DNA of 63,976 nt, filler included, from Craspedostauros australis (taxonomy: Eukaryota): the NCBI GenBank assembly GCA_030167865.1. It is 18 parts of 18 records of this genome, joined end to end, with 100 filler letters (N's around TTAATTAATTAA, not from the genome) between each part and the next. Parts side by side here need not be neighbours in the genome. Positions count along the whole stretch, not along the records: positions 51,768 to 53,585 come from JALAGF010003112.1; 17 more parts are not named here. One strand, 5' to 3'. Below the pieces are notes generated by a model, which was not told the DNA's origin, made no database searches, and saw only the letters and a program-made list of their open reading frames with translations. Numbering within the stretch: position 1 is the stretch's first letter; each line of letters starts with the position of its first letter. The position numbers and the translations under genes were made by a program. Shown piece by piece: positions 51,768 through 53,585 of the stretch.

Positions 51768-52025
51768 GATACTCCCTGGTACCTGACTCCTCCCAACGCC
51801 GGGGAACCGCACAAGAAGTCCGACAAGAATGGCAAGGACATCTGGTGGTGCCCGAACCACGGCGACAAGGGCAAGTGGGTCCGTCACGATCCCAAGGAAT
51901 GCCGCATGTCGAAGGACAAGAAGAAAGAGAAGGAAGCCGACAAGCCACTCAGCAAGGCAAAGGCGGACAAGCTCAGAGTCGCCATGTATCAAATCATGGA
52001 AGACTCGGACGAGGAAGAGTACTGA
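51768..52025 (+). mobile_element. gag: CoDi-type Copia gag C-terminus
   Basis: WYLTPP...WWCPNH...WVRHDPKEC zinc-knuckle variant, acidic tail, TGA at 52023-52025. Confidence 0.88.
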
Positions 52026-53585
52026 AACTCAGGTCGGATCGCAAGAATGGCTCTTGCTATCTGCAGACCACTCCTCAACTCAATCCAACACATCATCACA
52101 TGGCTCCTGCTCATCACCGCAGAGCTTGTGATGCATGTCACAGGAAAGATTGTGTGGGCGGTTGGAGCAGCAATGACGACAGCAACCGGTAAGGTTATCC
52201 GTCGCCAATGCTTCAAGCGCCGCAGGCTCAAGCCAAGCCGCAACAGGTGCCGACGCATCTACGCTTACAGCACCAAACATCGCAGAGCCAAGATAGTGAC
52301 AAAGAGACCGACGGGTCCCCTCACTCAGCTCTGGGCGATGGCACGACAAGCTCAACCCAAGCACAGAAGAGACGCAACACCCACAGCAAGATTCGATTCC
52401 GACTCGTTCAACATCGCTGTCGACAACTGCGCGTCAACTTCGTTCACCAACACACTCAGCGACTTCGTTGGCAAACCAAAACAAGTCAACCAACAGGTCA
52501 GAGGTGTAGGACAGGCCCGTATCAGATACATGGGCAAGGTGAGATGGAAGATACAAGACGACCTCGGCATCAAGCACACCATCACACTTGAGAACGTGGC
52601 ATATCAACCTGATCTACCATTCCGACTACTGTGCCCACAACATTGGGCACAATCCAAGGGAGATACACATGGAACTGGGTGTCTGACACTCGGTGACAAG
52701 ATGGAGCTCTTTTGGGACCACCGCAAGCACAAGAGAACCATACCACTGAGCAAGTCCAACATTGGAATGCTTCAGTCGGCACCAGGCATCAAGTGTTTTG
52801 CAACCTACTGCATGGCAAACAACATGCTTCCGGAGGTCACCACAGAACCTCACAGTGAGTCCAATATCGTGAGCGATGAGGAATCGGTTCACGAAACCTC
52901 AAACCAAGATCACATCACAGACTCCGAGGGAGACGATGAGTCGACAGACGAAGTCACCCACCAACAACAATCACTTCCGGCACGACAGCGCACAACAACA
53001 GAAAGGCTCCAAACAGACGAGCCATCCACCACGAAAGAGAGGAGCATCCCCATGCAAATCGACTTCAGGGACTCGCCAGCCGGAAGAACCATCCACACGA
53101 ACAACGAATATGCAGGGACCAACACAGCAGAAATGCTTCAGGTTCACTACAGGCTCGGCCACATCTCATTCAACAAAATGAGACACATGGCGAACACGGG
53201 AGACCTGCCATCGAAGTTCAAGCACTGCCAACTACCAGTGTGCGCCAGCTGCTCGTACGGCAAGGCAACCAAGAGACCATGGCGAACTCGAGCCAAGCAA
53301 CAGCGCACCATCAGACCAGTACCCATCAACCAGCCTGGCGACTGCATATCCGTGGACCAACTCGAGTCACCCACTCCAGGCTTCATTGGCCAAGTGAAAG
53401 GCAAGCTCACCAACCAGAGGTATCGGGCAGCTACGATATTTGTGGACCACTACAGCAGACTCAGTTACGTGCACCTACAGAAGAGCACAAACGCTGAAGA
53501 AACGCTGAACGCAAAGAAGACCTTCGAAGCCTATGCTCGCAGCCACCATGTCCAAGTCAAGCATTATCATGCAGACAACGGCAGG
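52026..53585 (+). mobile_element. pol: Copia pol: protease, integrase zinc finger and core (3'-truncated), in frame with gag
   Basis: FDSDSFNIAVDNCAS protease, HYRLGH...CASC, SVDQL..IFVDH..HADNG. First ATG at 52047. Confidence 0.92.

Follow-up and report, generated by a model that had tools for sequence, protein, structure and literature searches.

How does a retrotransposon whose gag ends in a stop codon make Pol? Retroelements must make far more Gag than Pol, and Copia elements typically use a single open reading frame (ORF), a +1 frameshift or splicing. The question is raised by a Ty1/Copia element in a stretch of 63,976 nucleotides (nt) from the Craspedostauros australis assembly GCA_030167865.1, which we call the window and whose parts are joined by N44-TTAATTAATTAA-N44 spacers. 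On the contig at 51768-53585, the sequence GAG TAC TGA (52017-52025) is followed by AAC TCA GGT CGG ATC GCA AGA ATG, and translation in frame across this junction gives ...DSDEEEY*NSGRIARM.... An earlier interpretation of the window, made from its sequence alone (the sequence-only reading), held that gag ends at this TGA, that pol continues in the same frame for more than 500 codons, that gag is open for more than 440 codons in a sister contig, and that a hairpin of 14 base pairs (bp) at 52032-52069, 6 nt past the stop and with the first pol AUG in its loop, promotes either readthrough or reinitiation. The structural description was accurate throughout: pol is open for 520 codons to the contig end, gag for 448, the TGA is the sole stop in these 968 codons, and the minimum free energy (MFE) structure from RNAfold is identical to the proposed hairpin. 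As to mechanism, the best reading, and in our judgment a probable one, is programmed readthrough of the UGA with the aid of a 3' stem-loop, because the stop at this position is always UGA, the frame is continuous across it, a leaky stop context is conserved, and a covarying helix lies 6-8 nt downstream.

The window itself supplies a single example. The contig at 51768-53585 shares its first 576 nt, at 100% identity, with the contig at 53686-55350 (minus strand), so the two are a single locus seen twice (or identical copies) and do not provide independent evidence, as the sequence-only reading had suspected. The argument is carried by relatives. A search with the window gag found 68 homologous proteins at 26-50% identity, nearly all of them 400-480 amino acids (aa) long, and a profile search of 1.84 billion representatives returned 6,491 gag clusters at E<=1e-3, with 1,369 at E<=1e-30; these are 50% identity clusters of public data. 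In the best 150 of the 6,491 clusters, gag is 260-526 aa long and is never fused to pol. A fused gag-pol was also not found among proteins of 785-2,240 aa, which is weak evidence. When 40 gag sequences are aligned, their C-terminal ends are in register with the window's stop and follow an acidic tail ending in F/Y or E. For DNA, we used a 14-sequence gag alignment to find 80 public metagenome loci (numbered with the prefix L below), with gag 29-39% identical. Scans of viral contigs with the gag alignment and the window pol, and of genome contigs with the gag alignment, found no relative.

Among the 80 loci, gag runs off the end in nine, the gag match is truncated in five, and 66 reach the gag C-terminal end. 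In 65 of these 66, the gag frame meets its first stop at a TGA. The sole exception, L057, is frameshifted in the acidic tail of gag, with a TGA directly before the pol frame. Of the 66 loci, 44 have a downstream pol match, and all of these but L057 (43 loci) have pol in frame 0. In 39 of these 43, the codon following the TGA already belongs to the open pol frame; the remaining four (L017, L032, L066 and L069) contain extra stops and look decayed. At least fifteen loci are otherwise intact: after a gag of about 390-450 codons and the TGA, pol stays open for 1,200-1,330 codons. In the relatives, the TGA and the protease are separated by a linker of very variable length (about 20 to about 200 codons), which is nevertheless in frame and free of stops. 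TGA is not the only stop available to these elements, since TAA closes pol in two of the three complete examples (L046 and L065).

To count each junction once, we clustered the junctions at 85% identity, which left 50 non-redundant sequences including the window, 49 of them with enough downstream sequence for folding. Several loci were dropped before these counts: the nine with gag running off the end, four truncated gag matches with TAA or TAG, L028 (TGA 120 nt from the locus end, atypical tail), L071 (gag match stopping at residue 334) and L057 (frameshifted tail). All 50 non-redundant junctions have TGA. The sequence-only reading had asked whether the stop is fixed at this position, and it had allowed that most copies might carry CGA or another sense codon here, with the TGA a product of CGA>TGA-type decay, or that relatives might have gag and pol out of frame. 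The stop proved to be fixed, and both of the adverse outcomes are ruled out by the counts above. The window's TGA is ancestral and not a product of decay. Frameshifting was considered as well and is ruled out, because pol is in frame 0.

UGA is the leakiest stop codon. Around it, the base at +4 in the 50 junctions is C in 31, T in 13, A in four and G in two, while the codon before the stop is GAA in 30 and GAG in eight, with A at -2 in 46. The majority contexts downstream are UGA-CUN, UGA-UGG and UGA-CGG. The same kind of context has been described for other retrotransposons: the 8-mer GAA-TGA-CT is reported to be strictly conserved at the gag-pol stop of the fission-yeast Ty3 elements Tj1, Tcry1 and Tosmo1-3, where it is read as a general eukaryotic readthrough context (PMC10085805).

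The second component of the signal is the helix. RNAfold applied to positions 52020-52080 gives the same structure as MFE and as centroid, with an energy of -15.8 kcal/mol, 14 bp and a 6-nt spacer after the UGA. Positions 52032-39 pair with 52059-62 and 52066-69, and positions 52041-46 with 52052-57. The stems (outer GGUC/GACC, inner GGAU/AUCU and GCAAGA/UCUUGC) are interrupted by a C/U 1x1 mismatch (52040/52058) and by a 3-nt 3' bulge, GCA (52063-65); they close the loop AUGGC (52047-51), within which lies the first in-frame pol ATG (52047-49). The z-score is -2.46, and two of 200 dinucleotide shuffles fold as well. Taken alone, then, the window's hairpin is only moderately unusual, which is suggestive and no more; its significance lies in the comparison with relatives.

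For that comparison, we folded the 54 nt from +5 at each junction and ranked its stability among those of every other 54-nt window in that locus. The junction is among the most stable 5% in 26 of the 49 junctions (2.5 expected) and among the most stable 1% in 19 of the 49 (Kolmogorov-Smirnov p 3e-12). In most lineages a stable helix starts 6-8 nt past the UGA, and it does so in three hairpin types that are unrelated in sequence. Group A has the design UGA N7 GCCCAAYGGAC N5 GUCYRUUGGGC. Group B has UGA N6 GGGUGGAC, then 30-40 nt, then GGUCUNNACCC, with a 2-nt 3' bulge, and in its MAFFT alignment the 5' arm is almost invariant. Group C, which includes the window, has UGA N6 GGYC, an inner stem, a loop, the other side of the inner stem, a 3-nt 3' bulge (GCA, GUA, AAA or GCU) and GRCC.

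The sequence-only reading had proposed covariation as a check on the hairpin. The helix is specific to its position and covaries in two alignments, those of groups A and C. In group A (17 sequences, ungapped MAFFT alignment), 93% of cells are paired compared with 79% in shuffles, none of 500 shuffles being as high, and both sides change in six of the 11 pairs (28 cells), while slid registers pair in only 25-56%. RNAalifold predicts the same helix from this alignment. The group C alignment consists of the window and five loci (L003, L032, L065, L066 and L069; six sequences, MAFFT). Its outer and first inner helix have 91.7% of cells paired, a value that two of 500 shuffles reach, and slid registers give 33-46%. 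Both sides change in four of the eight pairs; for example, the outer stem has U-A in the window and L032 and C-G in the others. The architecture of the window's hairpin recurs in L057 as well. In a quick gag tree, the DNA loci nearest to the window are L003, then L066 and L065/L069, all of which belong to group C, and this placement indicates that the window's hairpin is an instance of a shared design.

Two further observations bear on what is being conserved. In a nine-member group A clade, nucleotide identity peaks at 0.73-0.76 between -8 and +36 and is 0.2-0.4 in the rest of the linker. Within the stem, the amino acid encoded by the codon [U/C/A]GC varies (Cys, Arg, Ser) while its paired GC is invariant, and the third positions of Pro CCA and Gly GGG are nearly invariant, a pattern suggesting that the RNA, and not the peptide, is under selection. 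G-U pairs occur often, and the score of the covariance model drops by 50 bits on the minus strand; both point to a structure in the sense RNA. A search of 360 kb with the group A covariance model gave 21 junction hits, which were its own junctions and near-copies, with no new members and no match to the window, and Rfam at its gathering threshold matched nothing at the junction in eight long loci or in the window. We also looked for an H-type pseudoknot in 10 junctions. The best contiguous pairing between the loop and downstream sequence was 3-5 nt, matched or beaten by 161-500 of 500 shuffles, so the structure is a stem-loop and not a pseudoknot of the murine leukaemia virus (MuLV) type; the test is a simple one, and other topologies are outside its reach.

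Context and structure may be able to substitute for each other. The base at +4 is C in 18 of the 23 junctions without an exceptional helix and in 13 of the 26 with one (Fisher p 0.07, uncorrected for phylogeny), which hints at such an exchange, and the window combines a poor stop context with a helix.

If programmed readthrough is the explanation, it would work as follows. With gag and pol in one frame and parted by a single UGA, most ribosomes would stop at the UGA and yield Gag, while a small fraction would decode it with a near-cognate tRNA and yield a Gag-Pol fusion, to be cleaved later by the element's protease. The rarity of readthrough would set a high Gag:Pol ratio. With the UGA in the ribosomal A site, the helix, which starts 6 nt downstream, would be placed at the ribosome's mRNA entrance and would increase readthrough, in the way that the SEPN1 element and the 3' stem-loops of alphaviruses, furoviruses and tobraviruses do. 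Proven stimulators have spacers of 6-9 nt (PMC3159437). We infer from sequence both that readthrough is the means by which the stop is bypassed and that the helix is its stimulator. We also lean towards a wider claim, that the whole of this very large Copia lineage, in diatoms and perhaps other protists, needs UGA readthrough for Pol, that it uses at least three unrelated hairpin designs at 6-8 nt, and that it trades hairpin strength against GAA-UGA-CU.

Several observations weigh against readthrough stimulated by a helix. The stability of the window's hairpin is matched by 5.6% of the 54-nt windows in its 2.9-kb locus. The window's stop, UAC-UGA-AAC, is off the leaky consensus (UGA-C or UGA-CU with A at -1 and -2); A at +4 is found in only four of the 50 junctions, and UAC before the TGA is common to the window and L066 only. 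The DNA relatives that share the window's hairpin design are mostly decayed, with extra stops in L032, L066 and L069 and a frameshift in L057, and the window's own clade, P0001-P0013, is known from proteins alone, in which a hairpin is not visible. Nor is the helix universal: 23 of the 49 junctions, mainly in an AT-rich subclade, lack an exceptional local helix. This subclade (L031, L035-L039, L060 and L067) keeps the in-frame UGA, mostly as GAA-UGA-C; for it, context alone may suffice, or a longer-range structure that escapes a 54-nt window may be involved. Finally, the similar UGA and structure of Tca2, a yeast element and the one Copia precedent, gave no readthrough in a yeast reporter (PMC2194720).

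The Tca2 result also lends itself to an alternative, namely that the UGA is a true gag stop and that, as has been argued for Tca2, pol is expressed by another route: from an internal promoter, from an internal ribosome entry site (IRES) or by termination-reinitiation at a downstream AUG, with the hairpin pausing or positioning ribosomes or marking RNA processing. The Tca2 junction holds a minor promoter in addition to showing no readthrough in yeast (PMC2194720). In most elements here, no more than about 20 codons separate the stop from an in-frame ATG (median 13), and that of the window is in the hairpin loop. However, the position of the first ATG is not conserved, ranging from 0 to 107 codons, with a distance of at least 30 in 10 of the 49 junctions and at least 60 in four, and the hairpin loops of the relatives have no ATG. 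Independent initiation would need neither frame 0 (43 of 44) nor a frame open from the TGA (39 of 43) across an indel-rich linker, and it would have no need of UGA specifically or of the GAA-UGA-C context. We consider this alternative unlikely. Of the two mechanisms offered by the sequence-only reading, readthrough is thus favored by the UGA, the frame and the covarying helix, while reinitiation fares poorly on the shifting ATG and the loops that lack one. Reinitiation at the loop AUG as the mechanism of the family was rejected as unlikely on the same two grounds, and the ATG in the window's loop looks incidental.

A different possibility accepts readthrough and denies the helix a part in it: the level of readthrough would be set by the stop context alone, and the helix would serve RNA packaging, dimerisation or the slowing of ribosomes for Gag folding. 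The 23 junctions that keep the in-frame UGA without an exceptional helix agree with this, as do the higher frequency of C at +4 among them and the modest stability of the window's helix. Against it, the helix stands at a fixed 6-8 nt in three unrelated hairpin types, which is the spacing of the proven stimulators (PMC3159437). The +4 C trend equally fits substitution between context and structure, and the window has the poor context together with the helix. On these grounds we regard it as quite improbable that context acts alone.

It is very improbable that the UGA is spliced out, or that it is decoded as selenocysteine with the helix as a selenocysteine redefinition element. Drosophila copia does use splicing (PMC2194720), but position counts over the 50 junctions show no conserved GT/AG pattern around the stop. 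The geometry of the window's hairpin, with a 6-nt spacer and a 5-nt loop, does resemble the SEPN1 element (PMC3159437). No selenocysteine insertion sequence (SECIS) was matched by Rfam in the eight long loci or the window, a weak test because most loci end before the 3' untranslated region, and the codon lies in a variable acidic tail or linker, where a special residue is of no obvious use. As for a copy-specific nonsense mutation of the CGA>TGA type in a single-ORF Copia element, the window taken as one locus would permit it, but it can practically be dismissed: gag ends of relatives as distant as 26% identity line up with it, TGA is found in 65 of 66 loci, a fused relative was not found (the best 150 of the 6,491 clusters are unfused), and the window copy has no other stop in its 968 codons.

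Programmed UGA readthrough with a 3' stem-loop can now be set beside known systems. Tca2 (pCal) of Candida albicans, a member of the same Ty1/Copia superfamily, likewise has gag and pol in one frame, a UGA, a short spacer and a predicted RNA structure (PMC2194720). In Tca2 an 8-nt purine-rich spacer leads into a predicted pseudoknot, whereas here we find a plain stem-loop; and Tca2 is a single element, while the covariation reported here extends over a very large family known from sequence alone. MuLV also has an in-frame gag-pol stop, a structure at the mRNA entrance and a low fraction of Gag-Pol (PMC3159437, PMC2194720), but it is a gammaretrovirus with UAG, an 8-nt spacer and a pseudoknot, in place of the UGA and stem-loop of this Copia retrotransposon. 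The type II signals of alphaviruses, furoviruses, tobraviruses and a coltivirus have UGA-CGG or UGA-CUA, with UGA-UGG in one furovirus (Firth et al. 2011, PMC3159437). Their stems, 7-9 nt downstream, are backed by compensatory changes and stimulate readthrough up to 10-fold (PMC3159437). In these RNA viruses the stems close loops of about 100 nt, whereas the loops here are mostly 5-7 nt, or the stems close 30-40 nt.

The fission-yeast elements Tj1, Tcry1 and Tosmo1-3 share the in-frame TGA and, in GAA-TGA-CT, the majority context of the window's relatives; they belong to the Ty3/Gypsy superfamily, the part of the paper cited here reports no 3' structure for them, and the window copy itself lacks the 8-mer (PMC10085805). 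The stem of the SEPN1 element, set 6 nt past the UGA and closed by a 5-nt loop, has nearly the geometry of the window's hairpin and raises readthrough even without a SECIS (PMC3159437); it serves selenocysteine insertion in a cellular gene, while the elements studied here gave no SECIS match in the weak test described above. For the CoDi (Copia of diatoms) elements of Phaeodactylum and Thalassiosira, the main text of Maumus et al. 2009 (PMC2806351) names no mechanism and specifies neither the stop codon nor a structure.

Readthrough between gag and pol, stimulation by 3' stem-loops and a Copia element with an in-frame UGA (Tca2) are therefore already known. Tca2 is the one Copia element known to carry such a stop, and its mode of bypass is unsettled. 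Our literature search, whose coverage did not extend to earlier tabulations of recoding signals, found no description of a fixed UGA, of its context or of a covarying helix in diatom or algal Copia elements. The signal is, on the comparative evidence, newly documented for a large Copia lineage, of a known kind and well supported. To our knowledge, almost nothing is known of recoding in algae. A lineage with UGA and never another stop, together with a helix at the spacing of stimulators, would offer a clear and testable algal recoding signal. If the interpretation is true, Ty1/Copia would have its first well-supported readthrough system, and the dozens of natural stem variants in this lineage would form a ready library of tunable stimulators for algae. 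In annotation, the gag and pol ORFs of such elements would be treated as one expression unit and not as "broken" copies.

The coordinates of the features of the locus are collected in Table 1.

Table 1. Features of the Copia locus, in coordinates of the window
Feature	Position	Strand	Remarks
gag	54007..55350	minus	448 open codons, 5' end lost at contig end; N-terminal D/E-rich tract, conserved core, knuckle-like motif, acidic tail ...DSDEEEY
Final 85 gag codons	51768..52022	plus	Same locus as 54007-54261 (minus)
In-frame UGA closing gag, proposed readthrough codon	52023..52025	plus	Context UAC UGA AAC; aligned with gag ends of relatives, TGA kept in relatives
Spacer AACUCA	52026..52031	plus	6 nt from stop to helix; equal 6-nt spacing in closest hairpin relatives
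Stem-loop	52032..52069	plus	RNAfold MFE and centroid; 14 bp including one G-U
pol frame	52026..53585	plus	520 codons, open to contig end; reverse transcriptase beyond contig end
pol linker			About 130 aa, variable, precedes protease region
Protease-region motif VDNCAS	52419-52436	plus	
Integrase N-terminal zinc-binding motif HYRLGH	53145-62	plus	
Integrase N-terminal zinc-binding motif CASCSYGK	53241-64	plus	
Integrase core, D	53343-60	plus	
Integrase core, D	53436-56	plus	
Junction, second representation	53686..54261	minus	TGA 54004-54006, hairpin 53960-53997

The element is part of an intact-looking Ty1/Copia long terminal repeat retrotransposon of a eukaryote. Full-length relatives (L046, L065 and L008, three of the fifteen loci above) have the integrase upstream of the reverse transcriptase, as in the Ty1/Copia order of protease, integrase, reverse transcriptase, with Pfam matches to gag_pre-integrs/rve/SH3 and then to RVT_2 (1e-34 to 8e-40). 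In the window pol, Pfam places PF13976 gag_pre-integrs at residues 363-413 (5.3e-09) and gives a weak match to Pol_BBD (Pol beta-barrel) at the protease region. The window gag matched no Pfam family. It contains a knuckle-like C-x2-H-x8-H-x4-C motif (WWCPNH...RHDPKEC) at residues 390-408 (54124-54180, minus strand), in which W390, C391, H403 and C408 are nearly invariant among the 40 aligned sequences and which the Pfam CCHC models did not recognise.

The lineage is probably from diatoms. This assignment has as its sole basis the nearest gag Atlas cluster with recorded taxa, which is Eukaryota, with Bacillariophyta the commonest entry (phylum known for five members). The Atlas result for a host gene with a DTW domain, Eukaryota with Streptophyta commonest, was of no use in placing the host. 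In the quick tree, the window gag falls in a well-supported clade with P0001-P0013 and has a long terminal branch, 1.35 changes per column compared with a median of 0.28; it is either a divergent sublineage or fast-evolving. Some family members lie a few kb apart on the same metagenome contig, L055 and L074 on one of 10.4 kb and L004 and L022 on one of 10 kb, which suggests nested or clustered insertions.

Elsewhere in the window, a second, unrelated Copia-type gag is found at 28584-30222 (minus strand), with Retrotran_gag_2 (1.7e-13) and a zf-CCHC knuckle and with 546 codons open to the contig end; its gag-pol junction lies off the contig. The only Rfam matches in the window are a U6 snRNA at 44166-44271 (minus strand, 70.1 bits) and a tRNA at 7237-7309 (plus strand, 68.1 bits), which identify the host as a eukaryote. 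Two long ORFs on the plus strand are probably host genes: one at 760-2358 with a DTW domain (tRNA aminocarboxypropyltransferase type, 1.2e-20), and one at 21873-24584 with a HisKA phospho-acceptor domain (1.9e-06).

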